A stretch of DNA of 64,000 bases from contig JAQTUX010000002.1 in the NCBI GenBank assembly GCA_028707125.1, positions 144,355 through 208,354 of the forward strand. Reading direction: 5' to 3'. Position numbers and translations under genes: made by a program. Within the stretch, counting starts at the first letter, position 1. Each line of letters begins with the position of its first letter. The stretch comes from Candidatus Omnitrophota bacterium. Its GTDB lineage: Bacteria > Omnitrophota > Gorgyraeia > Gygaellales > JAQTUX01. This document shows, in pieces, positions 36,238 through 55,439 of the stretch. The notes below the pieces were generated by a model. The model did not search any database, was not told the origin of the DNA, and saw only the letters and a program-made list of their open reading frames with translations.

Positions 36238-36998
36238 TTAATCTTTTTTATCTTCTTGATCAGTTCTCTGCAGGTATGTCCCAGGAATAACGTATCAAGG
36301 CTGAATGCCAGGAACCTGTATCCTTCATCGATCTTCTCTGTAAGCAGCTCCGCCTGCGGAGGTATCAGGTGGAATCCGGCTGTCTTTTTCATATCCCTGG
36401 CGACCTTCATAATGCGCGCCAGGGCGGCCTTAACCCGCGGATGCTCAAACTCTCCAGGCCTGCCGATAGAACCTGAAAGGTCATAGGGTCCGACGATAAA
36501 CCCGTCCACGCCTTCAACCTTCAGTATTTCCTCCAGATTATCCACCGCCTTGATGTGCTCTATCTGCGCGATCACCACGCTGCCCTTATTAACCCAATTC
36601 TTATACTTCTCAAATCCCATCCCATACCCCTGAGCCCTGGCAAGGCCCACCCCTCTTCTTCCTTCCGGAGGGTATCTGACGGCGCTTACCGCCGCAACCG
36701 CGTCCTCTTTGCTGTTTACCATAGGGACGATCACGCCGTGAGAACCGGCATCCATAACTCGCTTGATAAGGACCGGGTTGTTTTCGCCCACCCTTACCAG
36801 AGGCAGGCAGCCGGACAATTCGATTATCTGGATAAGCGCCTGGGCCTGATCAAGTGTTATCGCGCTGTGCTCCATATCTACTGTCAACCAGTCAAAGCCC
36901 GCCCTGGCCATGATCTCCGCGATTGAAGCATGGCCCACGGTGATCCAGGAACCCACGGTAAGAAGCCCTTTTCTTAATCTCTCTTTTAGGTCTATCAT
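36234..36998 (-). CDS. HpcH/HpaI-family class II (metal-dependent) pyruvate aldolase.
   Basis: 254 aa with a TIM-barrel aldolase layout: LRVGENNPVLIKRVMDAGSHGVIVPMV...PEGRRGVG...VIAQIE. Confidence 0.75.
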   Translation of the reverse strand: MIDLKERLRKGLLTVGSWITVGHASIAEIMARAGFDWLTVDMEHSAITLDQAQALIQIIELSGCLPLVRVGENNPVLIKRVMDAGSHGVIVPMVNSKEDAVAAVSAVRYPPEGRRGVGLARAQGYGMGFEKYKNWVNKGSVVIAQIEHIKAVDNLEEILKVEGVDGFIVGPYDLSGSIGRPGEFEHPRVKAALARIMKVARDMKKTAGFHLIPPQAELLTEKIDEGYRFLAFSLDTLFLGHTCRELIKKIKKIK

Positions 36999-37015
36999 CT
37001 CTGATCTCCTGATTT

Positions 37016-39438: not shown

Positions 39439-40315
39439 TTATGTTAACCAGTTGGTTATTCTCGTCTAAACACAGCTCCGGAGTGCACTGCTTGAAATCC
39501 CTATGGCTCCACGGGGTCCAGCCTTTTTTAACGGCCTTTTGGATATCCTCTTCGGTGATCTTTTTGTCAAAGATATTAACCTTACCTTGCAGATATTTTG
39601 GCGCCTTGGCCTTTTCCATCCTTAAGGCGTTGCTTTTCGATACCATATCGGATGCCGCGCCGCTGCTCGGCCGGGGCATGGGGATGGCAGCGCCGCACAT
39701 CGGGCAATGCCGTTTAACCTGATCTACGAATTCTTCCGGATTCTTATCCCACCACCTCTTCTCAACAGGATAGCCCCCAGGGCCGTCAAACAGATGATCC
39801 ATTGCCGCGGCTACTTCGCAGAAGAACCCTCCCTTGGGGGTAATGGAAGCGGACCACCTGTATTGGATCCAGCAGCTTCCGATAAGCCTCCACATAAGCG
39901 CCTTATCTTCTATTATATCATCCGCGGCTATCAACAGCGGCTGATGCGCCCCTGCCGGGCTGCTGTGGTCGTTATATACTATGTTCTCCGGACAAAATGT
40001 ATCGTAAATCTTGTCTTCATACTCTTTCCACTTGTATCCATTGCTCCAAAGCTGCCTGTGTCCTTTATCCGGTATCATTTCCTTAAAAATATCGCATATT
40101 TCGGGAAATTTCGGATGCAGGGTGGGCTCGCCGCCCATCAGCCCTATATTGCCCTCATATCCCTCAAGCGAATCTATCGCCTTTCTGACCATGTCCAGAT
40201 CCATGAAAAATGGTTTGCTATGGTGGCCTACGAACCTGGTGCAATTCGCGCACTGCATATTACAGGCATTTGTTACTTCAATTTGTATGGTTTTAACTCT
40301 GTAAATAGGAATCAT
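39416..40315 (-). CDS. Radical SAM enzyme without a B12 domain, with an extra C-terminal cysteine cluster.
   Basis: CNMQCANC (CxxxCxxC) near the N-terminus, GGEPTLHP glycine-rich SAM motif, and a C-terminal CPMCG. 299 aa. Confidence 0.7.
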   Translation of the reverse strand: MIPIYRVKTIQIEVTNACNMQCANCTRFVGHHSKPFFMDLDMVRKAIDSLEGYEGNIGLMGGEPTLHPKFPEICDIFKEMIPDKGHRQLWSNGYKWKEYEDKIYDTFCPENIVYNDHSSPAGAHQPLLIAADDIIEDKALMWRLIGSCWIQYRWSASITPKGGFFCEVAAAMDHLFDGPGGYPVEKRWWDKNPEEFVDQVKRHCPMCGAAIPMPRPSSGAASDMVSKSNALRMEKAKAPKYLQGKVNIFDKKITEEDIQKAVKKGWTPWSHRDFKQCTPELCLDENNQLVNINDRKREK

Positions 40316-40347
40316 GCCCGCCCCTTTTTGGTTGTGCCGCCATCATC

Positions 40348-41559
40348 TCAATCGTCTACGCCGCCGCCCCAGACCGTATGCCTTAGCCCCCACTCATTGT
40401 TGACCTTGGTCCATACATGAGGCGATAACGACCTGTAAAAATCGACTACTTCGTGAAATTCTTCTTCGGTTATACCGAGATATCTCAAAAACCATTGAAA
40501 ATACTTCTTCGGGAAAGCCCCGTCGTAACGCTTGACAAGGGCAACCCCTTCCTCGCGGGTAATATGGCCGTCCCTGATCTCATGCGCGGCATCCGAGGTG
40601 GCCCTGGCGATACCGAACTTCATGTAAGCAAGATAAAAATGGAAACCGTCCTGCTTATCATCCAGGCTGGCATACTTGGAATAGGTCCCTTCTGAATGTT
40701 CGGGGTTAGGCTTAAATCCGGTATTCTCTACACAATAATAATAATTTTCCTGCGGGACCCATTTCTTGTAAAAGGAAAACCAATGCATCTGCGCCCCTAT
40801 CTTGCTCAACTCTTCCAGTTCCGGCGGCCTATACAAGCGGAATGAATCAGCGTTTATCTCCTCCTTCTTGAAGACCCCCGCCTCTAAGCCATGCCGGATC
40901 AGATCGTCTATGCCGGAACCCTTATAATAAAGTTCTTGCCAGTCCTCAGGCCTCTCATAGGCATTCTTGATATTTTTGCTGGACCCGCCGTATTCGATCT
41001 CTCCGCTTTCGCCATAAAACATCAAAGGGATCTTAAACCTTACCGCCATCTGAAACGCATATGCCTTTTGCCCATAGGCAAAGGGCTCCCACGCGTCACC
41101 CAGAAGCTCGAAGGACAATCTGGATAATTTTCTATGTAAAACACCATCGGGAAAGCATAATAAATTATCAAAACCGGAATCTTTAAAACTCAAATAATTC
41201 TGCCAACCGATATCCGTGTACTCAAAAGGGGCCCAGGTCACGGTCAAAGGATGCATGCCGTATTTATATTTCAGTTGGTGCGCGACGTAACCGGAATCCT
41301 TGCCTCCGCTGCCGGGGACAATACAATCATAGCTCCCGTCCTTTGAACGGTACCTGTTCAGCAGATCAACGAGCATCTTCTCTCTTTCTTTCCAATCTAT
41401 CGTGTTATGTTTCAAGTACGCATAACGACAGGCGCTGCAAACGCCATTCTCGTCAAAAGTGATCCTCGGCCTCTGATTCGAAACAACGCAGCTTTTGCAG
41501 AATCTGGTCTCTTTTGGAAGTCTGCCCAGCTGTTTATCTAACGTTTTTCTGAATAACAT
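40348..41559 (-). CDS. N-acetyl-sugar amidotransferase (PP-loop ATPase, WbuX/PseA-like) that makes an acetimidoyl (acetamidino) group.
   Basis: N-terminal zinc-ribbon (CKSC...CSAC) and PP-loop SGGKDS. The next two genes downstream are a HisH/HisF-like pair, as in the wbuXYZ arrangement. Confidence 0.7.
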   Translation of the reverse strand: MLFRKTLDKQLGRLPKETRFCKSCVVSNQRPRITFDENGVCSACRYAYLKHNTIDWKEREKMLVDLLNRYRSKDGSYDCIVPGSGGKDSGYVAHQLKYKYGMHPLTVTWAPFEYTDIGWQNYLSFKDSGFDNLLCFPDGVLHRKLSRLSFELLGDAWEPFAYGQKAYAFQMAVRFKIPLMFYGESGEIEYGGSSKNIKNAYERPEDWQELYYKGSGIDDLIRHGLEAGVFKKEEINADSFRLYRPPELEELSKIGAQMHWFSFYKKWVPQENYYYCVENTGFKPNPEHSEGTYSKYASLDDKQDGFHFYLAYMKFGIARATSDAAHEIRDGHITREEGVALVKRYDGAFPKKYFQWFLRYLGITEEEFHEVVDFYRSLSPHVWTKVNNEWGLRHTVWGGGVDD

Positions 41560-41589
41560 GCCCTGCCTCCAATGTGCCGGATAAAAAAA

Positions 41590-42234
41590 CTACATCTTAA
41601 GGAAATTCTCAAATATTTTTAAACCGCCTCTGGCGCTCTTTTCCGGATGGAACTGGCATCCCCATATATTATCTTTGCAAAGTACGCTGCAGAATCTATC
41701 CTTGCCATATTCCGACTCCGCTATTATGTTGTTATCTTCATTCGGCGAACAGATAAAAGAATGCACGAAATAGAAATGGCTCCCGTCGGCAACATCCCTT
41801 AAAATAGACCTGCCCGGATTCAAAGCGCCCTCCTTAAAATAAATTTCTCTCCAGCCAACGTGAGGGATCTTAAACGAATTATCCTTTTCCGGTTTCTCCA
41901 GGATCCGGACTCTTCCCTTTATTAAATTCAGGCCGTTGCAAAGACCGAATTCATCGCTTTCGCTCATAAGCAGCTGCATACCTAAACAGATACCCAATAA
42001 TGGCCTGCCGCTTCCAGAAAATTCACAGATCGCATCGCTTAAGGACCTGTCTTTTAACTCGCGCATCCCCTCACGAAAGGCGCCCACTCCCGGCAATATC
42101 AATCTTTGCGCGGAGCGGACTTTCACAGGGTCGCCGGTGATCTCGGTTTCGCCTCCGATATAGGCCATCGCCCTTTCAATACTGAAGAGATTGCCCATTC
42201 CATAATCAACTATGGTGGCCTTATTATTGTTCAT
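41590..42234 (-). CDS. hisH: Imidazole-glycerol-phosphate-synthase HisH-like glutamine amidotransferase subunit (WbuY-like).
   Basis: Class I glutaminase triad region LLGICLGMQLL...HVGW...CQFHPEKS. 214 aa. Confidence 0.8.
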   Translation of the reverse strand: MNNNKATIVDYGMGNLFSIERAMAYIGGETEITGDPVKVRSAQRLILPGVGAFREGMRELKDRSLSDAICEFSGSGRPLLGICLGMQLLMSESDEFGLCNGLNLIKGRVRILEKPEKDNSFKIPHVGWREIYFKEGALNPGRSILRDVADGSHFYFVHSFICSPNEDNNIIAESEYGKDRFCSVLCKDNIWGCQFHPEKSARGGLKIFENFLKM

Positions 42235-43118
42235 TATGGATTAACCGCTCCCTGCAGCATGCACCTGCAACTGACCCCTGCTTCGCTCAGTCTCTTTTTC
42301 ACTTCTGCTATAGAATCGGGCTTGATCCTGTTAGGCATAAAATTCAAACTGCCTCTGCTCCTCTTTATAAACTCTATATTGCCTTCTTCTTTAAAATCAA
42401 CGGGGTCGATATCCCGCTCCATATATTGATAGTGGAAAATAGACGCCGCGCTTACAGCATCGGCATGCCCATGCCTTATGGCCTCCAGGATATGCTCAAA
42501 TTTACCGCATCCTCCGCAGGCAATGACCGGTATGGGCGACTCTTTCGCTATCGGGCTTACCAGACCTAAATCATACCCTAAGCCGGTGCCTTCATTATCA
42601 AGGGAAGTCAAAAGGATCTCTCCCGCGCCCAAGGCGACTACTTCCTTTGCCCAATTAAACACCTCTTTGCCGCTCGCCTCTCTTCCGTTGTCGGTCATGG
42701 CTATATATGCATTATTGATCAGTTTTGCCTGAATAGATACCACGATACACTGAGAACCGAACGTCTCGGCCGCTTCCCGGATAAAATCCGGGTTATGGAT
42801 GGCCGCCGTATTGATAGCGACTTTATCGGCTCCGGAGCGCAATATCCTCTTGATATCCTCAATCGACCTTATGCCGCCGCCTACTGTCAGAGGAATAAAG
42901 ATATTTTTTGCGGTCTTCTCTACGATCTCTAAAAGATTATTCCTTCCGTAAAGGCTGGCAACCGCGTCTATGTAGATCAACTCATCCGCTCCGTCCAGAT
43001 AATACTTACAGGCGAAATCCCACGGCTTTCCCAAAACGCGCAGGCCTTCCAGATGAATGCCCTTGACTAAGTTAGGGCCCTTGATATCCAGTCTCGGTAT
43101 AATCCTCACATTAGCCAT
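42234..43118 (-). CDS. hisF: HisF-like cyclase subunit (WbuZ-like) with a C-terminal extension.
   Basis: (beta/alpha)8 HisF motifs: RIIPRLDIKGPNLVKG...TVGGGIRS...GADKV...GAGEILLTS. Its stop shares one nucleotide with the hisH-like start. Confidence 0.8.
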   Translation of the reverse strand: MANVRIIPRLDIKGPNLVKGIHLEGLRVLGKPWDFACKYYLDGADELIYIDAVASLYGRNNLLEIVEKTAKNIFIPLTVGGGIRSIEDIKRILRSGADKVAINTAAIHNPDFIREAAETFGSQCIVVSIQAKLINNAYIAMTDNGREASGKEVFNWAKEVVALGAGEILLTSLDNEGTGLGYDLGLVSPIAKESPIPVIACGGCGKFEHILEAIRHGHADAVSAASIFHYQYMERDIDPVDFKEEGNIEFIKRSRGSLNFMPNRIKPDSIAEVKKRLSEAGVSCRCMLQGAVNP

Positions 43119-43119
43119 A

Positions 43120-43860
43120 TCAGACCGCGGTCCACCCTCCGTCTACGACAAGGTTGTGCCCCGTTACATAGCCCGACGCGTCGGATGCCAGGTATATTGC
43201 CGCTCCCGCTATATCAACCGCCTTTGCCATCCTTCCCAGAGGGGTCTTGTCTGAATATCTTTTCACAAAGGCATCCGCCTGCCTGTCGCGCACACCGCCC
43301 GGAGAAATACAATTAACCCTGACCCCATGCCCGCCGTAGTAGGAAGCGAGGTATCTCGTGAAAGCGATTATTCCGCCCTTAATAGCGGAATAGGCTCCGG
43401 GGCAGGTCATTTTGGTATTCTTATAAATAGAGAAATCCGGCCCGACCATGCCATAAATAGAAGCAAGGTTAATAATGGACCCGCCTCCCTTCTTTTTCAT
43501 ATACTCGGCGGCATTCCGGCAGCAGATAAAATACCCGTTAAGGTGCGTATCGATATTCTTTCTCCAGGACGATACCGGCACATCCTCAAACTTCAAGGCC
43601 CAATCGCCGGTCCTGGGATAAGCGCTGTTGACCCATATATCCATACGGCCATATTTCTTATCCACAAACTTGATCAAAGAAGAGACCGACCGCTCATTGG
43701 CGATATCCACATGCCGGCCGGCGTTTTTATTGATATCGGCGGCCACAACAGAGGCGCCAAATGCCGACAGGCCGCGCGCTATTTCCTTTCCAATCAACCC
43801 CGCGCCCCCCGCTACAACCGCTACCTTGCCTTTCAGGCAGAAAAGATCATCGTATTTCAT
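43120..43860 (-). CDS. Short-chain dehydrogenase/reductase (classical SDR), possibly a PtmA-like accessory enzyme of the nonulosonic acid module.
   Basis: KVAVVAGGAGLIGKEIA glycine-rich motif and YSAIK (YxxxK). Confidence 0.75.
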   Translation of the reverse strand: MKYDDLFCLKGKVAVVAGGAGLIGKEIARGLSAFGASVVAADINKNAGRHVDIANERSVSSLIKFVDKKYGRMDIWVNSAYPRTGDWALKFEDVPVSSWRKNIDTHLNGYFICCRNAAEYMKKKGGGSIINLASIYGMVGPDFSIYKNTKMTCPGAYSAIKGGIIAFTRYLASYYGGHGVRVNCISPGGVRDRQADAFVKRYSDKTPLGRMAKAVDIAGAAIYLASDASGYVTGHNLVVDGGWTAV

Positions 43861-44581
43861 TTTTCCACAGTCCTTCCTTGATCAGGAACTCAATAAATTT
43901 AAAATCCATCTCGCTGTCTATGTCGTATCGTGACAACGCGCCCATAATATAGATCTCCGTCCTGCCGGCAAAAGGCATGGAATGCCTGGTATCAAGCAGA
44001 AAATCCCTGGAGTAAAAATATATCGAGGCATTCATATCAAATACCTCAGGAGCCGCCTGCCTGCCGGAAACCTTCCTGGACAGGGCCTTACAACGCCTGA
44101 CCGATCCGTCCCCTTTCCTTTCAACCATATTAAAATACGGATTCCTGTGCGCCCTGACCACGCTGAAAAGTATCGCGGGCTTACTTCTAAGAAATAACTT
44201 CAGGCATTCATCCAGGTCTTTGATCCTCCTGATCGGAGACGTAACATCCAGATCCACGACAATATCGTATCGTTCCTTGAATATCTTTTCGCTCTGGACA
44301 AGCGCGTGCCTTATGCTCAAAAGCTTGGGGGCGCTATCCGCGGCCAACTTATCCGGCCGCATAAAAGGCACCTGCGCCCCAAAATCCTTCGCGATATCAG
44401 ATATCTTTTCTGAGTCGGTAGACACGACAACCCGCCCAGCCCCGCCCCATCTCAATGCCTGCTCTATCGTATAGGCGATCAGCGGTTTACCCATTAAAGG
44501 GCGGATATTCTTATCCTTGAGCCCTTTGGACCCGCCTCGCGCGCAAATCGTGCATAATATATTGGGCCTGCCTGCCGCCAT
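43847..44581 (-). CDS. legF: CMP-nonulosonic acid synthetase (acylneuraminate cytidylyltransferase family, NeuA/LegF-like).
   Basis: ILCTICARGGSKGLKDKNIRPLMGKPLIAYTI. I moved the start to the ATG at 44581 (MAAGRPN...), which sits just downstream of the upstream gene's stop at 44584 and follows a GGAG/AGGGG RBS. The ORF track extends it to 44632. Confidence 0.75.
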   Translation of the reverse strand: MAAGRPNILCTICARGGSKGLKDKNIRPLMGKPLIAYTIEQALRWGGAGRVVVSTDSEKISDIAKDFGAQVPFMRPDKLAADSAPKLLSIRHALVQSEKIFKERYDIVVDLDVTSPIRRIKDLDECLKLFLRSKPAILFSVVRAHRNPYFNMVERKGDGSVRRCKALSRKVSGRQAAPEVFDMNASIYFYSRDFLLDTRHSMPFAGRTEIYIMGALSRYDIDSEMDFKFIEFLIKEGLWKNEIR

Positions 44582-44583
44582 AT

Positions 44584-45507
44584 CTACACCCCTAAAACTC
44601 CTAACACATCCAACGCCTGATCCAGAGAGCACAGCCTGGGCTTCAACCGGCGGTCAAGGCCCAGGAATACCCTGAGCATACTGATGTAGGATCCATCAAT
44701 CGCATCATTCCTCAGGACTGTCTTTCCCGATATCTCCAGCCGGCCGGTGATAAGGTCATAATAAAGATTCCTGGAGTTATCGCAGATTATCTTTAAATAC
44801 CTCTCAGCCGGCTTTCTTATATAATCCAGAGTTATATCCACAATAAATTCACGGTAATCTAAGATCAATTTAAAGGTATCCGGCGCGTGGATATCCAGGC
44901 CGCTGATCTTAGCCCTGTATAAAAACCTTTTCTTGAAGGCGCTGCCAAATAGCCATAACGCGTAGTCGATCTCGTGGGAAAGGTCCAGATCAACGCCTCC
45001 CCCCAGGCGCCTGTGCGCGCTGTAAGAATCCCCTGTTTCCCTTCCCGGCCGCCATTCCCTCAAGTCCTGCCCGGCCGCTATTTCAACGATCTTGATGCTA
45101 CGCCTTTGCCCTGCTATAAAATCGGCGATCATGTCAAATGCCCTGAGAAACCTCAGATTGTAAGCGACAAATACCCCGACGCCTGAGCCGGCTGCCAGCC
45201 TTTTTATCTCTCTGCCTTTTAAGGCCGAGGATTCAACCGGCTTCTCAATGAGCACGCCCTTCAGCCGCTTCAAATTACGCAGGCAACTTTTAAAATCAGC
45301 CAAATGCCTGGACGTGACGGAAGAAATAACGCAATATTTGATATCTCTGGATGTGAGGCCCTTGATGCTGTCAACAAACCTGGCGCCTGATCCATCGGGA
45401 TGCCTCGTCAGCACGTAAGGATTGATCCCCAGCGACATTAGATTCCCGACATGACGCTTCCCTGCAGAGCCGTAACCGGCCACTAAAACTTCAACGCGCC
45501 TATTCAC
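44584..45507 (-). CDS. Gfo/Idh/MocA-family NAD(P)-dependent oxidoreductase (PtmF/WbpB-like accessory sugar oxidoreductase).
   Basis: N-terminal Rossmann VLVAGYGSAGKRHV...EKP. 307 aa. Confidence 0.7.
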   Translation of the reverse strand: MNRRVEVLVAGYGSAGKRHVGNLMSLGINPYVLTRHPDGSGARFVDSIKGLTSRDIKYCVISSVTSRHLADFKSCLRNLKRLKGVLIEKPVESSALKGREIKRLAAGSGVGVFVAYNLRFLRAFDMIADFIAGQRRSIKIVEIAAGQDLREWRPGRETGDSYSAHRRLGGGVDLDLSHEIDYALWLFGSAFKKRFLYRAKISGLDIHAPDTFKLILDYREFIVDITLDYIRKPAERYLKIICDNSRNLYYDLITGRLEISGKTVLRNDAIDGSYISMLRVFLGLDRRLKPRLCSLDQALDVLGVLGV

Positions 45508-46495
45508 AAATATCCTCTTTCAACAATTCCCTTATTTCCCCGGCCGCCATGACCTTGCCTTCATTGGATCTATATACGATACGGCTGCCTTTATCGCTGT
45601 GTTTGCCGTGATTTAGCGTGGAAAGAATGTACATATCATCCAGTTCGTTCACTATCGCCGCCTCATCGTCATTCATCAACTCCTCATGCATCTTCTCCCC
45701 GTCTCTCCTGCCGATGAAATCAATCTTGACCTCTTCCTTACCGCGCCCGTATTTAGGGGCGAATTCCTCAATGACCGCTTTAGCCAGGTCCTGAATAAGC
45801 AGGGCGGGCATTTTCAGTATGAATGTCTCTCCCCCTTTTGAGATGTGCGCTGCCTTAAGCACCAGCTCGGTGGCCTTATCAATGCTCATCACGAATCTGG
45901 TCATTGACCCGTCGGTAACAGTGACCGGGCCTCCTTTCTTTACCTGCTCCTTGAACAAAGGCAGGACAGACCCCCGGGAATTCAAGACGTTGCCGAATCT
46001 CACGCAGGAAAAAACCGTCCGCCTTTCCCCCTTGTATAAATTAGCCGATACTGTTAACCTTTCAGCAAGCAATTTAGACGCGCCCAGGACGTTGATCGGG
46101 TTTACCGCCTTATCCGTGCTGATAGTGATGAATCTATCGATCTTTTCATCCATAGCGGCTTCTATCAGATTCTTGGTCCCTAAGACATTTGTCTGAACCG
46201 CCTCAAAGGGGTTAAGTTCGCATAACGGCACGTGCTTGAGCGCTGCAGAGTGGAATACTATATCTATGCCTTCAACAGCCCTTCTCAGCCGCTCCTTATC
46301 CCTGATGTCCCCTATCAGAAGCCGTATCTTATCGCGTGGCAGCTTACGCCCAAGGTGGAACAGCTCTGTCTCATCCGTATCCATGATCCTTACGGTATTT
46401 GGGTTGTACTCCAGCAGCTTCTTGACAAGCGCGCTGCCTATGGAGCCGGCTCCGCCGGTCACAAGGATCATCTTATTTTCATAAAAATTCTTCAT
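45500..46495 (-). CDS. legB: NDP-N-acetylhexosamine 4,6-dehydratase (PseB/LegB/CapD short-form family).
   Basis: MILVTGGAGSIGSALV...DKAVNPINVLGASKLLAERL. 331 aa. It begins the nonulosonic acid module. Confidence 0.75.
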   Translation of the reverse strand: MKNFYENKMILVTGGAGSIGSALVKKLLEYNPNTVRIMDTDETELFHLGRKLPRDKIRLLIGDIRDKERLRRAVEGIDIVFHSAALKHVPLCELNPFEAVQTNVLGTKNLIEAAMDEKIDRFITISTDKAVNPINVLGASKLLAERLTVSANLYKGERRTVFSCVRFGNVLNSRGSVLPLFKEQVKKGGPVTVTDGSMTRFVMSIDKATELVLKAAHISKGGETFILKMPALLIQDLAKAVIEEFAPKYGRGKEEVKIDFIGRRDGEKMHEELMNDDEAAIVNELDDMYILSTLNHGKHSDKGSRIVYRSNEGKVMAAGEIRELLKEDICE

Positions 46496-47622
46496 TTATT
46501 CCTCCTGAAAAATGTCTTTATTGTTTTTACAATATGATCCATTTCCTCGCAGGATAATCCCGGATGTATGGGCAGCGACAAGACCTGCCTTGATATCCTC
46601 TCGGTAACCGGCAGCCGGGCCGCCTGTTTTGAACGGCCCGCGTAAAAGCGGCTACGGTGCACAGGATCAAAATATACCTTTGTGGCGATACCTTTTGAAG
46701 CAAGGTATTCCCTCAGCTGCTCCCTGCGCCTTTTGACTATCACGGAGTACAGTTGATATACGTTAAAATGGCCCTTCGGCGGCTCAAAGACAGCGATCTC
46801 CTCGATCTGTCCTAATCCGCCGGACATATACTCGGCCTTCTGCCGCCTCAGCGCGATAATCTTAGCGGCCCTTCTCAACTGGGACATGCCGACTGCCGCC
46901 GCGATGCTTGACATCCTGAAATTATAACCCAGGGAAACGTAGTCAAACGACTCTGAAGAAGCAAAATAATTGCCCGCCCCGGACCTGCCGTGCGACCTTA
47001 TAAGTTTCAATTTCTCATATATCCTAGGAGAATCTGTCAGAGCCGCGCCGCCTTCGCCCGTGGTGATTATTTTATTCTGGCAGAAACTAAGCATGGCGCA
47101 ATCGCCGAAGGCGCCGGCCATTTTACCGCCTGCCATCGCGCCGAATGATTCGGCGGCGTCCTCTATAAGGAACAGGCCGCGCCTCTTTGATATCTTTTTT
47201 AATTCCTCTATGCCGCAAGGGCAGCCGCCATAATGAACGGGGATTATCGCCCTGGTCCTGGGAGTGATCCTCTTCTTGACATCCTCCGGATCCAGGCCAA
47301 AGGTTTCCTCTTCTATATCCGCGAATACCGGCCTGGCCCCGACAAAAAGCGGGGCGTTGGCTGTAGCAATGAATGTAAAAGAAGGGACGATAACCTCATC
47401 ACCCTCCCCGATCCCATAAGCCAATAAAGCGGCGTGCAGAGCTGAAGTGCCGGAATTGAAGGCCAGGCAATACTTAACGCCGATGTACCGGGCCAGCTCA
47501 TTCTCAAACGCCCTTATAGCCGGCCCCTCTGCCCAGTACATCCCTGACCTGATAACAGAGGCAGCAGCCCTTACATCGTCTTCATTCCAATCTATCTTAA
47601 ATAAAGGCACCTTCTGCTTCAT
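46492..47622 (-). CDS. legC: DegT-family aminotransferase of the nonulosonic acid pathway (LegC/PseC-like).
   Basis: DegT motifs IVPSFTFIATANA and DAAESFGA. It is adjacent to the dehydratase and the NeuB/NeuC homologues. Confidence 0.8.
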   Translation of the reverse strand: MKQKVPLFKIDWNEDDVRAAASVIRSGMYWAEGPAIRAFENELARYIGVKYCLAFNSGTSALHAALLAYGIGEGDEVIVPSFTFIATANAPLFVGARPVFADIEEETFGLDPEDVKKRITPRTRAIIPVHYGGCPCGIEELKKISKRRGLFLIEDAAESFGAMAGGKMAGAFGDCAMLSFCQNKIITTGEGGAALTDSPRIYEKLKLIRSHGRSGAGNYFASSESFDYVSLGYNFRMSSIAAAVGMSQLRRAAKIIALRRQKAEYMSGGLGQIEEIAVFEPPKGHFNVYQLYSVIVKRRREQLREYLASKGIATKVYFDPVHRSRFYAGRSKQAARLPVTERISRQVLSLPIHPGLSCEEMDHIVKTIKTFFRRNK

Positions 47623-47626
47623 ATCC

Positions 47627-48067
47627 CTACCTTGAAAATGTTTCTATTTCTTTCCTGGTCAATTTCCTCGCTACCTTTGCCGGAACCCCGTAGGCCAGCA
47701 CATTGGCCGGTATATCTTTATTTACAAAACTGAAGGCGCCGATGACCGAATTCTCACCGATCTTTACCGCCGGCATTATCACGCTGTGGCTGCCGATCCT
47801 GCAATTCCTGCTCAAGGTAACCGGCCCCTGTTTATTGTCAATAGTAGAAACGGAGTATACGGAGCAATGAGACCCTATCTGGACATAATCCTCTATGGCC
47901 ACGCCCTTCTTGGCGTTAATATACGTATAGGCCCCTATATCGGTCTTGTAACCCAACTTAAAATTGCCCTTATGCTGAACCAACCAGTTGAATTTCGTAG
48001 GCCTGCCTTCTTCTATTTTCGGGTATTTCCAATCCTTGAATCTTGCGCCCATGTCGCTCCTCATCAA
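47627..48067 (-). CDS. Hexapeptide-repeat (left-handed beta-helix) acyl/acetyltransferase.
   Basis: 146 aa with isoleucine-patch repeats (VQIGSHCSVYSV...CRIGSHSVIMPAVKIGENSVIGAFSFV). Confidence 0.7.
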   Translation of the reverse strand: MMRSDMGARFKDWKYPKIEEGRPTKFNWLVQHKGNFKLGYKTDIGAYTYINAKKGVAIEDYVQIGSHCSVYSVSTIDNKQGPVTLSRNCRIGSHSVIMPAVKIGENSVIGAFSFVNKDIPANVLAYGVPAKVARKLTRKEIETFSR

Positions 48068-49209
48068 TAAGAAATCCTTTTGTTTAATAACCTGCTGTTT
48101 ATCCTGAGCCCTTTCAAGATCTTTGTTATTCTTTCAGACGCCCTGCCGTCGCCGTATGGATTCCTATCCTTCATAAGCCGCCTTCTAAAATTCATATCAA
48201 AAATCGCCTTCTTAATCGCGGACTTGATCTCGTTCTTATCATACCCCGTATCTATCACGTTAGCCGCCCTTTCCCTGCCTTGCTGCCTTGCGCCTACATT
48301 AACTGCCGGCAGATGAAATGACGGGGCCTCAATGATCCCAGAACTGGAATTCCCGACCAGGGCGCCTGCCAGACCCATAAGCCCCAGGTAATCTCCATAA
48401 GGGATACTCCTGAATATCCGTATAAAGGGATACCTTCTATATTTTTCAATAATGCCTATAATGTCCCTGCTGCCGGCATCCGCGTTAGGGTAAATTACGA
48501 TCGTCTGATGCCCCAATTCTTTGAGGGCCTCCATTGTCTGTTTCATTTGACGCCCGGCATTATCAACATCCATAGTAACCGGATGTTGGATCGCCAAAAT
48601 AACCGGCTTAGAGAGGTCCAGATCATACCTGCGCGGCAGGCCCTCCCTGGAAGTCGCGAACCTGCCGTTGACGATATTATCCAGGCCAGGCGCGCCCACA
48701 ACATTTATGCGCCAGGCATCCTCCCCCATCCTTTTTATCCTCCCGGCTGCCTGGCGGGTAGCCGCCAAATGAAAATGAGAAAGTTTAGTTATCGCGTGCC
48801 GGACGGTCTCGTCAACCGTGGAAGTAACCTCTCCTCCGTGAATATGGACCACGGGTATTGACATATAGGAGCCTGTAATCGCCGCCCCCAGCATCTCCGC
48901 TCTGTCTCCCAATATAAGAATAATGTCGGGGGCGATCCTGCCGATACCCCTGGCAAACTTTGAGGTAAAATCGCCTATAAATCCGGCCATGGACCGCTTA
49001 TCATTGCCCTTGTATACCGCCCTGATTATGTGGACGGGAATATTATCCTTTCTTATCTCGTTAACCGTCTTGCCGAATTCCGGCATCAGATGCATGCCCG
49101 TGGCAACGATATCCAGCTTAAGGCCGGGATGCCCCTTAATGGCAGACAATGTATTCCTCATCAGTCCATACTCAGCCCGCGTACCGGAAACATACAGGAT
49201 ATTTCTCAT
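48064..49209 (-). CDS. legG: Hydrolysing NDP-N-acetylhexosamine 2-epimerase (NeuC/LegG family).
   Basis: MRNILYVSGTRAEYGLM...HIHGGEVT...GNSSSGIIEAP matches NeuC-type epimerase_2 motifs. 381 aa. Confidence 0.8.
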   Translation of the reverse strand: MRNILYVSGTRAEYGLMRNTLSAIKGHPGLKLDIVATGMHLMPEFGKTVNEIRKDNIPVHIIRAVYKGNDKRSMAGFIGDFTSKFARGIGRIAPDIILILGDRAEMLGAAITGSYMSIPVVHIHGGEVTSTVDETVRHAITKLSHFHLAATRQAAGRIKRMGEDAWRINVVGAPGLDNIVNGRFATSREGLPRRYDLDLSKPVILAIQHPVTMDVDNAGRQMKQTMEALKELGHQTIVIYPNADAGSRDIIGIIEKYRRYPFIRIFRSIPYGDYLGLMGLAGALVGNSSSGIIEAPSFHLPAVNVGARQQGRERAANVIDTGYDKNEIKSAIKKAIFDMNFRRRLMKDRNPYGDGRASERITKILKGLRINSRLLNKRISY

Positions 49210-50222
49210 ATTAAATCATGAAACCTTATCAAGGAATCCTTCTTAAGGCCCCTTCTGGCTTCTCTGCCTATTATTCTATCTAAGTATTTTGGGGCGACTC
49301 CGATGCCCGGCCTTTTAATATCGATCGCGTCATTCGTTATCTTGGCGCCCTTGGGTATATCTATTTTCGCCACTATGCTTTTCCTGACATGTCTTTTGAT
49401 CCTTTTCTCATCCCTGGTGGGCGCCTTGACCCCGTTACCGATGGCCTTCTCGGTATTCCGTATCCCATCCACCAAGCTCTTTAACTGGTCCGGCTCAAGG
49501 CTCATCATGTGGTCCGGCCCTTTCATATTCCTGTCTAAGGTAAAATGTTTCTCTATTACTGTGGCGCCCAGGGCAACTGCCGCGATAGAGATCTCGATGC
49601 CTTCCGTATGGTCGGAATATCCCACGTTGACACCCAGGGCGTCTCTTATGGTAAGCATGGCCAGAAGATTGACATCCCTATAGGCAGCCGGATAAGCCGT
49701 TGTGCAGTGCAAAAAGGTTATATTGTTTTTAGAAACACCTGAACGCACCAGAATATTTAACGCCTGTCTGGCCTCGTCCAGGTCTGCCATGCCGGTAGAG
49801 ACAATGACCCTTTTCCCTATACCTCCTATCTTTCTTAGATAGGGAATATTCGTTATTTCTCCCGAAGGTATCTTGAATATCCTCAGCCCCAGCCCGTTAA
49901 GCAGGTCTATGCTCTCCAAATCGAACGGGCTTGATAAAAACGCTATCCGTTTCTGCCGGCAATGACGGATAAGTTCTCTGTGGGCATCCAGGCCAAGCTC
50001 CAGCTTTTCTAACATCTGAAGCTGCGATTCATTTCTGGCTGTGGCCCGGAGCTGATACCCTGCCTTCAGAGCGAGTCTGCTGGCCAGCCGGCGCGCCCGG
50101 AATGTCTGAAATTTGACCGCGTCGGCTCCGGCATAAGAAGCGGCGTCTATCAGCCGTTTGGCCAATTTAACGCTTCCGTTGTGGTTAACCCCTGCCTCTG
50201 CTATTATAAAAACCTTACTCAT
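49206..50222 (-). CDS. legI: Nonulosonic acid synthase (NeuB family; N-acetylneuraminate/legionaminate synthase).
   Basis: [26 protein letters not shown]...KFQTF...SSPFD motifs. 338 aa. Confidence 0.85.
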   Translation of the reverse strand: MSKVFIIAEAGVNHNGSVKLAKRLIDAASYAGADAVKFQTFRARRLASRLALKAGYQLRATARNESQLQMLEKLELGLDAHRELIRHCRQKRIAFLSSPFDLESIDLLNGLGLRIFKIPSGEITNIPYLRKIGGIGKRVIVSTGMADLDEARQALNILVRSGVSKNNITFLHCTTAYPAAYRDVNLLAMLTIRDALGVNVGYSDHTEGIEISIAAVALGATVIEKHFTLDRNMKGPDHMMSLEPDQLKSLVDGIRNTEKAIGNGVKAPTRDEKRIKRHVRKSIVAKIDIPKGAKITNDAIDIKRPGIGVAPKYLDRIIGREARRGLKKDSLIRFHDLI

Positions 50223-51931
50223 AAGCGGCCTTCAAATTTATGCCTCAAGGGATAAAAAGAAACAGCCGGCAATTCAGGCAAACCTTTATCAAGCCATCTA
50301 CGATAGGGGACGTCGGGATATTTTAAAAGGATCTCCCGATTTACCAATAACTCCCCTTCCCTGTAATGTATGAATATCAACTTCCTGAAATCAAAGGCAT
50401 CCTCTCCCCAATGCGAAAGCCGCCTCAATCTGCCGTCATCCGGGCCGCCGGGCAATCTTCTCTTTTTAAGTTCGGCGGCAGTGCATACCTTGTATCTCCG
50501 GAATGACTCCGGCTGCCCTGATGCCGCATACAACAGGTTCAGGGGAAACTCAAAATCATAATAATTATTCAGGTCGGCATAAAAATAGCCGTTCTCCATA
50601 TTAAAAAACGGTATGGCGGCCTGGGCGTCCGCAAAGAACATCGCCTCCGGCGGAAGGGCGGGAAAACGCTCCCTAAACGCCTGAAAAAATCTGCTTTCTT
50701 CCTGCCATCCCCTGAAATACAAGTCAAGGTTAACATTGTTGAAAAAGACGCCCAACCCGAAAAAAGACGCCAGAAAAACACGATACAGCCTCGCCCTGAT
50801 ATTTGAGCCGGCAGACGCCCTGAATATCAAGTATAAAAAGGCGGCGGCTAAAACAGACCAGCCAAACTGCAGTATTATGCCATGCCTTGAGCTTGAGCCA
50901 GGGGCACCGGCATTGCCGACATATAAATACATAATCATCGGAAAGACCAGCAATACAGAGCCAAACAACATAGAAAACCCGAACCAACCACCGTCATCCT
51001 TGCGCTGCTCTGCAATAATTATCCGCCTCAAAGCATAAAAGCTCAAAATTCCGGCAGTTACCCCCAATAGCACCGACCAGCCGTTTACAGACGGAAAATG
51101 CCTTGCGAAAATATACCAACTCTGGAATAAAAGATATTTTAACGCCTGCGGATATTTGGCTAAATTAAGCATCCCCGAAAAATTCCCCGCGTATGCCCCT
51201 TCGTAGATACCGTAGGGGCTGAATTTTAATTTATATACGACCAAGGGTGCGCACAACAACAGAAATGGCGACCAGGCGGTCATCGCCTTCTTCAGTGACC
51301 TTCTCCAGCTCCCTGTATCCAGGGCAAGCAGGCGGCATATCAAAATAAACCTTGCCGGTTCCAAAGCCACTGTCCCCTCCATAAGCAGATAGGCAACCGC
51401 TGAAATCCCCAGTGCCGCGGACAAAAACCGCAGCCGCCCGCTGCCTGTAAATGCCCTGTATGTCAAATAAAAGGAAATGACGCTCAAGCATACACCCAGG
51501 CGATAATAAAGATTGGCGTAAACAGGCATTGAGCTATCCAAAGGGGATGCCAGAAAACAACCGGCAGCCAAAAAGGCCAAAAGGCGGCTTTTCCCGGACA
51601 GACCCCTGATAAAAATATAAATAAAGGCCGCTGACACGACCTCTATGAATATGGCGGCGGAATGCCATATCATATAAGCATGGTCCGATACCTTATGAAG
51701 ATTAAAAAGATAATACAGGAATGCGCCTTGCGGTATCCTTCTCATCTGCGCAAAACCCATATTGATAAATTCACCCGGGCTGCCGCTTGAATATGCCGAT
51801 ATAAGCCAGCAATTATCGTCCCAGGCGGCGTTATGGAACAAATATAACCTGCCGTAGCTTAACAGCGCCAGAAATACAATAAATACCGGAGTATAAAAAT
51901 CGCCTCTTTTAGACATCATAACCGGCAGCAA
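50219..51931 (-). CDS. Multi-pass integral membrane protein, probably a GT-C-like glycosyltransferase. Function unknown.
   Basis: 570 aa. It has about 11 hydrophobic helices and a ~130-aa soluble C-terminus. The first loop ([21 protein letters not shown]) resembles the ArnT/PMT-like paralogues. Confidence 0.4.
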
Positions 51932-53031
51932 AACTCCTTCACCGCTTCCGCAACCGCAGTAATTTCCTCCTTAGTGATCTCCGGATACAAAGGCAGAGAA
52001 ATAACCTCCTCTGCCGCTAATTCCGCGTTAGGCAGATCGCCCTTTTTGTAAGACAGCTCCTTATATATCTCCTGGAGGTGCAAAGGCAGGGGATAATGAA
52101 CCGCGCCGATAATATCTTTCGCCTTTAAGAACTTGAGGAGCTCGTCCCTCTGTTTAAGCCGGATAACGTAAAGGTGAAAAACATGCCTGCCTTCTCTGAT
52201 CGTCCCGGGAATGGCCAGCTCCTCAGACAGGCCGGACTTTTTGAAAAGCTCATTGTATACCTCGGCCTTCTCTATCCTCTGCTCATTCCATTTATTCAGA
52301 TATCTTAATTTCACGCGTAAGATCGCCGCCTGCAATTCATCCAGGCGGCTGTTGCGGCCGCGGGTAACACAGTAATACCTCTCCCTGCAGCCATGGACAC
52401 GCAGCACGCGCAGCCTGTCGGCGATATCTTGATTGTCTGTGACCGCTACTCCGCCGTCTCCGTAAGCGCCAAGGTTCTTGCTGGGGTAAAAACTGAAACA
52501 GCCGCAGTCGCCGAAAGAGCCGACTTTTCTGCCCTTATATTCGGCCCCTATTGCCTGGGCGCAGTCCTCAATGATCATCAAATTATGATCCCTGGCGATC
52601 TTGATCAGCTCATCCATCCGGCAGGGCTGGCCGTAAAGATGCACGGGGATTATGGCTTTTGTCTTTTTGGTGACTTTCCTCCTTACTTCCTCAGGGTCAA
52701 TATTATATGTATCAAGGTCTATATCGGCAAAGACCGGGCGCGCGCCCACCGAACAAACTGCCTCGGAGGTGGCAAGAAAGGTAAAAGGCGTAGTAATGAC
52801 TTCGTCATTCTCACCGATATTTAAAGCCCTGAGGGCCAATTCCAACGCGTCTGTGCCGGATGCGACCCCTACCGCGAACTTAACGCCCAGAAAAGAGGCC
52901 ACCTCCTCTTCCAGGCGCCGCACATTTTCCCCTAAAATGAATGAGCCGCTATCCAGCACCCTCTGGATAGCCCCGTCTATCTCCCCTTTAATGCTCTGGT
53001 ATTGCAGTCTTAAATCCAGCGGCGGAATCAT
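51916..53031 (-). CDS. DegT/DnrJ/EryC1-family sugar aminotransferase.
   Basis: 371 aa. Motifs: [42 protein letters not shown]. Confidence 0.85.
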
Positions 53032-53080
53032 TATCGCTAACCTCTCCTTTCTCTAAAGCACATTCTCCGGCGTCAATATT

Positions 53081-53704
53081 TTACGCCATTGAATAAAAAC
53101 TGATCCCTGACAACTCCTTGTCGTTATTGAGCCTGTGTAAGATCTCGTCATTATATCTTATTGACGTAACCAATACCGCGTCCGGCCTTAATTCCTTTAT
53201 GATCCGCGGGGGCTGCACAATAAATCCGAACATCTTATTGTTATGCTTATTTTCATCATCATCTGTTATGCCTAAAACCGAAAACTCAAAACCAGAGCCA
53301 TTTATAATAATAAACACCACTTCTAAGACCTCGCCCGCCCCATAGCATACTATGCGCTTATGCCCCGCGGTAGAAAGCGTGTTAAGGCTGGCAGTTACCT
53401 TATCTCTTAAGGCGGAATAATAGCTGACGGTGTGTTGAAGAAAATGATAGGCCAGTCTGGCTTTTTCGCTGAAACCTTTAGGGGTAAGATAGTAACCTAT
53501 CCGCTTGTGATTAATGCCTTGGGCCTTTACCAGCCCTTTGCTGACCATCTTTTTCAGGCAGGCATTGGTCACACCCAGGGCTACGCCTAAACGCTGGGAA
53601 AGTTTGCGCTGTGAAACAGTGGAGTCCTTAGCTATCTCCTCCAATAACTGAAGATTGCGTAAGTTTTCGGTAGGTTTTAAAAACTTGTCTTGCAATTCCG
53701 GCAT
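53081..53704 (-). CDS. Putative transcriptional regulator with an N-terminal winged-helix and a C-terminal Rossmann-like domain (a Rex-like layout).
   Basis: The N-terminus reads as a helix-turn-helix (TVSQRKLSQRLGVALGVTNACLKKMVSKGLV). The C-terminus (KRIVCYGAGEVLEVV...GFIVQPP...DAVLVTS) resembles a CoA/NAD-binding Rossmann domain. It is the first gene after the only large intergenic gap. Confidence 0.45.
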   Translation of the reverse strand: MPELQDKFLKPTENLRNLQLLEEIAKDSTVSQRKLSQRLGVALGVTNACLKKMVSKGLVKAQGINHKRIGYYLTPKGFSEKARLAYHFLQHTVSYYSALRDKVTASLNTLSTAGHKRIVCYGAGEVLEVVFIIINGSGFEFSVLGITDDDENKHNNKMFGFIVQPPRIIKELRPDAVLVTSIRYNDEILHRLNNDKELSGISFYSMA

Positions 53705-53900
53705 GTAATTTTGGCCTGTTGCCCTGAAAAACCCGAGTTTTCCGGGGGGTGGCGTTCTAAAAATGAACGATTACCATTTTACGGCTTTTGCCCTGCTTTG
53801 TCAAGTGACTTCTGCGTTCAAATCAGCCGGAAAAAGCCGCTATCTTAAGCTCGTATCTTCTTCAAATGCAATTGGTTTTGCTCCTGTAGAAAAGGCGGGA
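53705..53900 (-). promoter_or_regulatory. Largest intergenic region in the window; candidate promoter/operator or attenuator for the regulator gene and the downstream nonulosonic-acid genes.
   Basis: It is a 196 bp non-coding gap in an otherwise gap-free locus. It contains a weak stem followed by a T-run (CCCGGAAAACTCGGGTTTTT on the transcribed strand) about 30 nt upstream of the regulator start. Confidence 0.3.
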
Positions 53901-55439
53901 TTAAGCGCGCTGCATAAGGCGGTTGAGGATCTTGATCTTTCTGAATTTGGACAAAATAAACCTTTCCGTTTTTAGTTCCTGCCTGCCTGACAGGACATTC
54001 AATACCACGCGGCCGGTTTTAACCGGATGGAAGGCCGCCTTGACTCCATGGAACAAAAGGTAACCGGAGATCTGGTAGACCTTTAATTCCCAATCAGCGA
54101 TATCCTCTGACCAGGACCTGGCCTTACCGATGTCGCCCATTGATATCAATGAGGCGAAGAATGCCTCGTCTACCTTTATTTTTCCTGCTTTGCGGAGTTT
54201 ATCAAACAATTTTGCTCCCGGCAAAGGGGCAAACAGCCCTGCCACACATTCATCAACGCCGTTCTTCGCCAGCCGCATCATCAAGCCTAATGTCTTAAAA
54301 ATATCGCCTTTTTTCTCTCCGGGGAACCCCATAATGAAGTATACCGACGTCTTGATCTTGGCCCTATTCGCGATCCTGGCGACCTTGATGATCTCCTCCA
54401 GATCCAGGGACTTGCCGATGATCTCATCAAGCACCCTTTTTGAGCCGGATTCCGGAGCCAGGATAATATTGGTGCATCCTGCCTCAACCATCCTGGAGAT
54501 GATCTCCGCGTTCATCCTATGCGGCCTTATTCCGTTTGCCGGCTGCCAGTTGATCTTAACCCCCTGCCTGATAAGCTCATCGCAAAATGCCAGCAATCTG
54601 CCCGGCTCAGTATTCATGTTCTCATCTTCAAAGTGGACCTCTTCGATCCCGTACTTCTTTTGCAGGAATATTATTTCCTCAACCACCTTTTTAGGGTCCC
54701 GTGGGCGCCATTTCCTTCTCCAGATCCCGGGGGTGGTGCAAAATGAACAATCATAGGGGCAGCCCCTTGAAAATAACATGACTGTCCACTTGTCAGACCT
54801 CGTGCAGCCGTGCGGCTCCCTGAACCTGAAATAATTATTCATGGGAACGGCATCCCAATCCGGATAAGGCAGGGAATCCACATCCTGCAATAACTCAATA
54901 TCCTTATTGATAATAAGCCCGGAACCATGCTTAAAACATAACCCGGGGATATCCTTCAAATCAGAAAGATCGACTTCCCATTGATTTCCAGCCAATGCCC
55001 GGCATAGCTTAAGGAAGGTGATCTCCGCCTCTCCCACGCAAACAAAATCAACGCATCCGGACATCAGCATGTATTCGGGCAGGGCCGATGCATGCGCCCC
55101 TCCCAGGACCAGGACCGCCTTAGGCAGCCTCTCTTTGATCGATCTGCATAGGTCCATTACAAACGCGTGCGCTATTGAGAATAAACAGGAGATCCCTATG
55201 ACCCTGGTTGCAGGATGGATCTTTTCTATAAGTTCCGAAGGCCGCAAGCCCCTATAGGCGCTGCCTTTATATTTATAATACTGGCCGGGATTCTCGCCAA
55301 GGCCGTCGATCAGATGCACTCTAAAATTATTTTTTTTAAGAATCGATGAGATGTACAGCAGGCCAAGCGGAGGTGTGACCCCGTCGGTAACCTGCGTAGG
55401 GGAAGAAAATTGCGCGGGATTGATAAGCGTTATGTCCAT
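53901..55439 (-). CDS. Cobalamin-binding (class B) radical SAM enzyme, paralogue 7 of 7.
   Basis: 512 aa. The N-terminus is MDITLINPAQF...LIDG...LGGAHAS. Radical SAM motif: FSRGCPYDCSFCT. Confidence 0.85.
   Translation of the reverse strand: MDITLINPAQFSSPTQVTDGVTPPLGLLYISSILKKNNFRVHLIDGLGENPGQYYKYKGSAYRGLRPSELIEKIHPATRVIGISCLFSIAHAFVMDLCRSIKERLPKAVLVLGGAHASALPEYMLMSGCVDFVCVGEAEITFLKLCRALAGNQWEVDLSDLKDIPGLCFKHGSGLIINKDIELLQDVDSLPYPDWDAVPMNNYFRFREPHGCTRSDKWTVMLFSRGCPYDCSFCTTPGIWRRKWRPRDPKKVVEEIIFLQKKYGIEEVHFEDENMNTEPGRLLAFCDELIRQGVKINWQPANGIRPHRMNAEIISRMVEAGCTNIILAPESGSKRVLDEIIGKSLDLEEIIKVARIANRAKIKTSVYFIMGFPGEKKGDIFKTLGLMMRLAKNGVDECVAGLFAPLPGAKLFDKLRKAGKIKVDEAFFASLISMGDIGKARSWSEDIADWELKVYQISGYLLFHGVKAAFHPVKTGRVVLNVLSGRQELKTERFILSKFRKIKILNRLMQRA

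Follow-up and report, generated by a model that had tools for sequence, protein, structure and literature searches.

How bacterial surface-glycan clusters are controlled by pathway metabolites is poorly understood. Here we describe a regulator gene and the 196-bp intergenic gap that precedes it in a glycan gene cluster of a Candidatus Omnitrophota bacterium (contig JAQTUX010000002.1, positions 144,355 to 208,354; this whole stretch of 64,000 nucleotides is called the window, and coordinates given without a locus name refer to it), and we compare them with the closest described systems. Two of these are regulators. Rex proteins (T. aquaticus 1xcb/3ikt, T. maritima 5zz5, B. subtilis 2vt3) have ~205–215 amino acids, with an N-terminal winged helix and a C-terminal small Rossmann-type domain, and control redox metabolism through the operator TTGTGAA-N6-TTCACAA; in them, a domain-swapped C-terminal helix couples the binding of NADH in the Rossmann domain to the DNA-binding domains. 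The MarR_EPS proteins (TIGR04176) are stand-alone, single-domain proteins of ~105–150 amino acids that are tied to exopolysaccharide or glycan loci.

The other described relatives are parts of enzymes. The sugar C-methyltransferases (Methyltransf_14; TcaB9 4e33, KijD1 5t64) and the proteins with PglD_N/NeuD/VioB N-domains act on dTDP- or UDP-sugars; the PDB entries that matched our regulator are complexes with TDP or a dTDP-sugar, and in these enzymes the nucleotide is bound by the domain that was matched. In two kinds of membrane enzyme, PglF/WbpM-like dehydratases (N-domain 3nkl) and WbaP/CpsE (PDB 8t53), a small domain is an accessory module that regulates catalysis. The one of WbaP, a so-called domain of unknown function (DUF; CoA_binding_3), serves as a regulatory module: it dimerises, supplying most of the dimer contacts, and it binds UMP, UDP, UTP and UDP-Gal (PMC10942596).

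Our analysis of the locus leads us to favour, with some reserve, an autoregulated dimeric repressor of glycan genes, in which a 17-bp palindromic operator would lie over the start region of a sigma-70 promoter and the protein would combine a MarR_EPS winged helix-turn-helix (wHTH) with a Rossmann-like sensor of a nucleotide-containing metabolite.

A putative promoter and a palindrome in the largest gap of the window

All the long open reading frames (ORFs) of the window lie on the minus strand, ~59 of them chained, co-directional and tightly packed. The gap in front of the regulator gene is the largest between chained ORFs, the next ones measuring 64, 49, 47, 32 and 30 bp, in agreement with an earlier sequence-only reading of this DNA that had called it the sole sizeable gap. 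An apparent gap of 441 bp at 47623–48063 was rejected, as it is occupied by a 146-amino-acid hexapeptide acetyltransferase.

On the minus strand the gap carries TTGACA-17-TAAAAT (53804–53776), which agrees with the sigma-70-type consensus at 11 of 12 positions; the pattern TTGACA-N16-18-TAWAAT has no other match in the 64 kb, where 0.06 would be expected. The palindrome CGTTCATTTTTAGAACG starts 7 nt after the −10 hexamer, so it should span the expected transcription start. It is the single occurrence of an exact CGTTC-N7-GAACG inverted repeat in the 64 kb, and the other two one-mismatch matches to the motif in the window lie in coding DNA and have GC-rich spacers. Neither a second operator nor a second copy of the regulator was found in the window. 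On comparative evidence, the palindrome would overlap the regulator's own promoter, as for MarR-type autoregulation.

A different inverted repeat of 11 nt (53782–53792 and 53829–53839), with 91% complementarity and arms separated by 36 nt, flanks the −35 hexamer. It could fold only in RNA read through from upstream, or in DNA as a cruciform, and the homologous loci do not conserve it.

Conservation of the module upstream of homologous regulator genes

By the names of its homologues, too, the window belongs to Candidatus Omnitrophota. Searching GTDB genomes with the protein alignment gave 52 loci, 50 of which were analysed (L029, whose gene is cut off at a contig end, and L059, which matches weakly and in the C-terminal domain only, were excluded). 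In the Omnitrophota-like loci the upstream DNA has diverged except for one module, ttTTcC-TTGACA-17-TAAAAT-(5-7 nt)-(A)TCGTTCAnnnnnTAGAACG. Written as TTGACA-17-TAAAAT-(5-7 nt)-CGTTCAnnnnnTAGAACG, this module lies upstream of orthologous regulator genes whose products share 57–74% identity with the window protein (56–70% for the GTDB loci, by the best tblastn segment). In 36 of the 50 loci, the 300 bp in front of the regulator contain the core GTTCA-N5-TGAAC with at most one mismatch; these 36 include loci from Omnitrophota, Deltaproteobacteria/Desulfobacterota, Acidobacteriota, Acidimicrobiia, Gemmatimonadota, Desulfosarcina and Haploplasma. The density of the core was 2.72 per kb in the upstream regions, ~110 times that in the other 493 kb of locus DNA (0.024 per kb). 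With a promoter match that is unique in the window and a palindrome conserved before homologous regulators, the gap appears to be what the sequence-only reading had taken it for, the best candidate for an internal promoter or operator.

The half-site cores are invariant and do not covary, the outer positions are altered on one side only in L010, L014 and L016, and the operator of L086 is turned round with respect to the gene. Together with tandem copies in other loci, the flipped copy and the invariant, non-covarying half-sites argue for a protein-binding DNA palindrome and not an RNA structure. The tandem arrangement was observed in four loci of the Desulfobacterota type (L032, L034, L036 and L038), where two perfect GTTCA-N5-TGAAC sites, 22–24 bp apart from start to start, lie 30–100 bp upstream of the regulator, which suggests cooperative binding of two dimers. 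Locus L015 (4870–4932) has two copies of a zero-spacer palindrome, AGAACGTTCT, between the −10 hexamer and the ATG, which jointly make up one CGTTC-N7-GAACG site.

We also scanned metagenomes for the exact 18-mer operator and obtained 39 matches. Of the 33 that do not adjoin a regulator, 27 sit inside long ORFs and have no −35 hexamer; we treat these as chance matches on our own estimate of the size of the database. All six matches with a correctly placed −35 (TTGAC) are copies of the module, five with a regulator immediately downstream and one with a B12-radical-SAM gene. In this last case (L063 9285–9350, minus strand; SDBS01009273.1) the module has the −10 variant CAAAAT and directly precedes a gene for a B12-binding radical SAM enzyme; no regulator homologue was found in the 9.3 kb downstream of it, and the gene is a candidate additional member of the regulon.

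The complete Omnitrophota genome CP070837 has a gap of 9 bp upstream of the regulator and an identical module 3.4 kb upstream (CP070837.1; L013 2496–2566, equivalent to about 6500–6560 of L001), at the head of an operon that ends with the regulator. There, the module precedes genes for ATP sulfurylase, a B12-radical-SAM enzyme and APS kinase in what is a sulfate-activation/radical-SAM operon, an arrangement that suggests a sulfated-glycan operon under the same control.

Of 21 Omnitrophota loci, 19 have a gap of 80 bp or more upstream of the regulator, a size reached by 16% of other gaps and by 5% of those downstream, and the gap downstream of the regulator has a median of 11 bp across the family, which indicates that the regulator is typically the first gene of its transcription unit. 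In every phylum sampled, genes for glycan enzymes follow the regulator. Among ten downstream neighbours sampled in distant taxa, nine encode glycan or nucleoside diphosphate (NDP)-sugar enzymes (DegT, GT4, NeuB, GDP-mannose dehydratase, rSAM-SPASM and others) and the tenth a FabH-like KAS III. Two distinct paralogues of the regulator, P0024 and P0058 (206 and 204 amino acids, both ~70% identical to the window protein), are reported on the 28.7-kb contig CAZEQA010000003.1 of locus L008.

A predicted MarR_EPS-type winged helix joined to a Rossmann-like domain

The regulator starts at the ATG at 53704, a position conserved in an alignment with 29 homologues. Its N-terminal part matches HTH_24 (E 9.5e-10), and residues 17–104 align to positions 6–97 of the 105 of TIGR04176, that is, to nearly the whole MarR_EPS model (E 1.9e-20; 72.8 bits against an equivalog cut-off of 88 bits), which was also matched by 48 of 56 diverse family members. 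The family profile matches MarR-family chains in the PDB, with a best E of 1.3e-7 (FabT). Unlike the stand-alone MarR_EPS proteins, the window protein, with 207 amino acids, carries an additional Rossmann-like C-terminal domain of 90 amino acids, and we infer that the long helix between the two (residues 75–112) serves dimerisation.

The full-length AlphaFold2 (AF2) model had a mean pLDDT of 82.5. When the C-terminal domain was modelled alone, it gave a compact alpha/beta Rossmann-like fold with a pLDDT of 96.3 and a pTM of 0.88. The HTH_24 and MarR_EPS matches and this confident model bear out, at the level of predicted folds, the earlier claim of a winged helix fused to a Rossmann-like domain; both strings quoted in support of it, IVCYGAGEVLEVV and DAVLVTS, fall in the C-terminal domain. 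A C-terminal domain without a nucleotide-binding fold would have spoken against the sequence-only reading; the modelled fold does match nucleotide-binding domains. The best solved structure in the Foldseek search with this domain was 3nkl, with a template modelling score (TM) of 0.70 and a root-mean-square deviation (rmsd) of 3.2 Å, followed by Rex (0.61–0.69), the VioB N-domain (0.67), the WbaP DUF (0.65) and KijD1 (0.63–0.64); NAD(P) amine dehydrogenases were matched as well. The sequence profile of the domain gave a similar picture, with 3nkl at E 3.5e-7, T. maritima Rex at 9.9e-6, a protein annotated as DapB (4-hydroxy-tetrahydrodipicolinate reductase) at 0.005 and B. subtilis Rex at 0.021.

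When the C-terminal domains of 33 family members were compared with Pfam (E ≤ 0.1), Methyltransf_14 was matched by 29, PglD_N by 15 and CoA_binding (PF02629), weakly, by five. The window protein alone stays below the Pfam cut-offs (21.8 bits against 23.5 for Methyltransf_14; E 0.12 for PglD_N) and, in contrast to these sugar enzymes, has no catalytic domain attached. Precomputed annotation lists PF22674 (C2185-like_N), whose Pfam entry carries no function, for nearly all the homologues. Overall, the domain is closest to the group of PglF-N (3nkl), Methyltransf_14 and PglD_N. It shares a YGAG...DDD..K.G pattern with PglF-N and the WbaP DUF, from which it differs in being fused to a DNA-binding domain.

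The positions conserved in the family are Y-G122-A-G124-E, D148-D149-x-x-x-K-x-G and D175-A-V-x-I-T-S; in a family whose members are only 25–35% identical, G122, D175 and D148, the last at the end of beta2, reach a conservation of at least 90%. These residues are the usual nucleotide-contact positions of the Rossmann beta1-loop-alphaA and of the end of beta2. The third position of the glycine motif, G122-A-G124-E-V-L127, is Leu or Met in all the close (Omnitrophota) homologues and Ala or Gly in many distant members.

A search of 1.84 billion representative proteins returned 196 clusters that match the C-terminal domain at E ≤ 1e-3, and the wHTH of the family is present in 93 of the best 150. 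Ten longer proteins with this domain were scanned and all have other domains: nine are glycan enzymes (GT2, GT4, TagF-like/LicD, radical SAM plus methyltransferase, TOD1-like, or with Methyltransf_14 only), and P0160 gave a weak CoA_binding match only. In P0126, P0130, P0136, P0166, P0177, P0204, P0207 and P0249, the small Rossmann-like domain is a C-terminal or internal accessory module, sometimes in two copies, on GT2, GT4, TagF-like/LicD, radical-SAM plus methyltransferase and TOD1-like enzymes, which suggests that glycan enzymes widely use it as a module for regulation or for holding substrate.

Resemblance to Rex in layout but not in family membership

In the full-length Foldseek search, Rex chains were the top matches in the PDB (E 4e-6), but with a TM of 0.30–0.34 and an rmsd of 13–15 Å, which means that each domain finds its counterpart by itself but the two do not superpose as one rigid body. 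The two families are alike in size and domain order, in probably binding as a dimer to a palindromic operator at the target promoters, and in having detectably similar C-terminal domains. They differ in the DNA-binding domain (MarR/MarR_EPS-type wHTH here, PF06971 in Rex), in the 38-residue connecting helix, in the glycine motif (GAGEVL in the window protein, a complete GxGxxG in Rex), in the operator (GTTCA-N5-TGAAC here) and in the genes controlled, which here serve glycan biosynthesis and not redox metabolism; sequence identity is 13–20%. Neither PF06971 (searched at E ≤ 1) nor PF02629 was matched by the window protein. The domain-swapped helix of Rex is absent, as both AF2 models end in a beta-strand (202–205) two residues before the C-terminus. 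The sequence-only reading had also proposed to look for Rex-like operators in the gap; searching with the Rex operator at two spacings and up to three mismatches, we found no match there, and the counts in the window were at the level of chance.

The claim that the protein is Rex-like thus stands for its layout, on the full-length Foldseek ranking and the second-best place of Rex in the C-terminal profile search, and fails for membership: the regulator is not a member of the Rex family, having neither the PF06971 domain nor the third glycine, the swapped helix or the Rex box. Within the CoA_binding/PglD_N/Methyltransf_14 group, the C-terminal domains of Rex and of this family are probably related by remote homology, which falls short of membership at the family level.

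The leader and the surrounding genes

The features of the locus are listed in Table 1. A hairpin followed by a T-run, which the sequence-only reading had noted as a possible attenuator, does exist in the leader at 53746–53732 on the minus strand, but the attenuation is unsupported. The hairpin, CCCGGAAAACUCGGG, lies downstream of the promoter, and homologous leaders lack it. The region has no more terminator-like sites than chance would give (one found, 1.7 expected), and the fold z-score against shuffled sequence is 0.00 for the 5' leader (−1.67 for the whole gap). We therefore rejected this candidate. An Rfam scan of 53500–54100 at E ≤ 1 gave no match.

No Shine-Dalgarno-like motif is found upstream of the regulator ATG (53705–53724, minus strand), whereas 39 of 59 window genes have one, and in some orthologous loci the operator runs right up to the ATG. 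The missing motif and an operator that ends at the ATG imply a very short leader and probably low translation.

Table 1. Positions in the window of the gap, its sequence elements, the regulator gene with its predicted domains, and the adjoining genes
Feature	Coordinates	Strand	Basis or remark
Intergenic gap, 196 bp, the largest of the window	53705..53900	-	Gap table, ORF lists
−35 hexamer TTGACA	53799..53804	-	Unique in the window together with the −10 hexamer; column-conserved in homologous loci
−10 hexamer TAAAAT, 17-nt spacer from −35	53776..53781	-	T35, A36, A38 and A39 invariant in alignment A4
Putative operator CGTTCATTTTTAGAACG, core GTTCA-N5-AGAAC at 53754-53768	53753..53769	.	Begins 7 nt past the −10 hexamer
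Weak hairpin CCCGGAAAACUCGGG followed by UUUUU, in the 5' leader	53732..53746	-	5 pairs; judged not significant
Regulator gene, 207 amino acids: wHTH, long helix, Rossmann-like domain	53081..53704	-	
Predicted wHTH, MarR/MarR_EPS type, residues 13-73	53486..53668	-	HTH_24, TIGR04176, family profile, AF2 secondary structure
Predicted long connecting helix, 38 residues, 75-112	53369..53482	-	AF2 model; part aligns to the C-terminal part of stand-alone MarR_EPS
Predicted small Rossmann-like domain, residues 117-205; YGAGE, DDD..K.G and DAV.ITS conserved	53090..53356	-	AF2, Foldseek, profile, Pfam
Upstream neighbour, B12-binding radical SAM enzyme, last gene before the gap	53901..55439	-	
First downstream gene, DegT-type aminotransferase, 49 bp past the regulator	51916..53031	-	

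The stretch 1134–63816 (minus strand) forms one glycan/NDP-sugar supercluster of more than 60 kb and ~59 genes, ~20 of which are covered by the gene annotation used here. Its contents include the nonulosonic-acid genes (NeuB, NeuC-like, PseB/LegB-like and CMP-transferase), several B12-radical-SAM enzymes, GT2, and UDP-glucose-dehydrogenase-like and Rml-like genes. Upstream of the gap lie the B12-binding radical SAM enzyme, one GT2, two UDP-glucose-dehydrogenase-like genes and RmlABCD-like genes; downstream of the regulator lie DegT, a membrane protein, NeuB, a NeuC-like 2-epimerase, an acetyltransferase, a second DegT, a PseB/LegB-like dehydratase, a CMP-transferase and others. The DegT-type aminotransferase gene next to the regulator is probably co-transcribed with it, because there is no terminator-like site between the two and downstream gaps are small throughout the family. 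A terminator scan of 36000–53100 yielded nothing above chance.

Discussion

According to the autoregulatory model that we favour, the sigma-70-type promoter of the gap would have its transcription start region covered by the 17-bp operator, and the first gene that it drives would encode the DNA-binding protein that most probably recognises this operator, as a dimer. Binding would repress both the gene of the regulator itself and the sugar-tailoring and nonulosonic-acid genes closely linked to it downstream; we propose repression, and not activation, from the position of the operator, at about +1 to +15. A nucleotide-containing metabolite bound by the C-terminal domain would modulate the repression. 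Most plausibly it would be either an NDP- or CMP-sugar or a nucleotide in free form, for example UMP or UDP. These candidates are favoured over NAD(H) because the nearest sequence families and the fusion partners of the domain handle nucleotide sugars, because the related WbaP DUF binds UMP, UDP, UTP and UDP-Gal, and because the coupling helix of Rex is missing. The response to NADH/NAD+ that the sequence-only reading had envisaged as one possibility found no such backing: nothing points specifically to NADH, and the nearest domain relatives bind NDP-sugars or uridine nucleotides.

Several observations weigh against this model. The core motif, at up to one mismatch, is missing from the 300 bp upstream of the regulator in 14 of the 50 loci. 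No terminator was found at the start of the gap, and read-through from the upstream genes is possible. In the C-terminal domain, the third position of the glycine motif, GAGEVL, is taken by a bulky Leu, and GxG is followed by an invariant Glu, so nucleotide binding might be weak or lost, and the structural scores do not separate NAD(H)-binding from NDP-sugar-binding relatives, with a TM of 0.6–0.7 for all of them.

Two of the alternatives concern what the C-terminal domain does. If it bound no ligand and served dimerisation or oligomerisation only, the protein would be a simple autoregulated repressor or an architectural factor whose activity is set by its own concentration. The degenerate glycine motif of the window protein fits this idea, as do the dimer contacts of the related WbaP DUF (PMC10942596) and the fact that stand-alone MarR_EPS proteins function with no such domain. 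However, G122, D148 and D175 and the YGAGE and DDDxxKxG motifs are conserved at positions typical of nucleotide contacts and not of interfaces, and the same domain recurs as an accessory module on enzymes that use nucleotide sugars, for which reasons we hold a ligand-free domain to be rather unlikely. The protein could, conversely, be a true functional analogue of Rex, with a Rossmann-like domain that binds NADH/NAD+ and couples glycan-gene expression to the redox state. Besides the full-length and C-terminal rankings of Rex, this would agree with the alignment of 'G-I-x-D-x-D-P/x-x-K-x-G-K' with the FDxDPxKxG segment of Rex, with the weak matches of a few family members to the NCBIfam Rex models (E about 1e-5 to 1e-6) and with the GxGxxA/G kept in many members. 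Set against this are the absence of a PF06971 or PF02629 match, the Leu or Met in place of the third Gly in the window protein and its Omnitrophota relatives, the lack of a swapped C-terminal helix, an operator unrelated to the Rex box, a regulon context of glycan synthesis and not of fermentation or respiration, and Pfam neighbours closer than Rex that are NDP-sugar-binding domains. We regard a redox sensor as unlikely.

The remaining alternative concerns the palindrome, which might be the site of another factor or a 5'-terminal RNA stem-loop that stabilises the mRNA. Its arms can indeed form a 5-bp RNA stem, and our assignment of the operator to the regulator rests on their co-occurrence. 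Nevertheless, the element tracks the regulator gene across phyla, its core half-sites are invariant where an RNA stem would covary and its outer changes are one-sided, it occurs flipped and in tandem, and neither Rfam nor the fold z-score gives any sign of a structured RNA, all of which makes this alternative very improbable and leaves the palindrome as the likely operator of the regulator in the model that we favour.

NCBI names the homologues only as 'winged helix-turn-helix transcriptional regulator', no NCBIfam model covers the two-domain architecture, and in a limited search of the literature on 'C2185-like', MarR-Rossmann nucleotide-sugar regulators and Omnitrophota glycosylation clusters we found no description of the family. 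Within the same limited search, we know of no transcription factor that directly senses an NDP-sugar. The family is one of one-component wHTH regulators with a Rossmann-type sensor, analogous to Rex; it is uncharacterised, widespread and linked to glycan clusters, and it is not a new principle. Tentatively, and as a possibility that we rate below the repressor model itself, it may represent a class of transcription factors that directly sense a nucleotide-sugar, or the UMP, UDP or CMP released by glycosyl transfer, through a PglF-N/WbaP-DUF-like module, and feed back on large surface-glycan clusters through GTTCA-N5-TGAAC.

The family now has a predicted operator and promoter architecture, a confident domain model and the candidate ligand-contact residues G122, G124 and D148/D149, and an operator conserved across phyla together with cultured hosts makes the proposal directly testable. 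For the Omnitrophota, the gap marks the only clear point of regulatory entry within a glycosylation island that exceeds 60 kb. If nucleotide-sugar sensing is true, the family would be the counterpart of Rex for glycan pathways; it occurs in at least six phyla, and two of its hosts, Desulfosarcina cetonica and Haploplasma modicum, are in culture.

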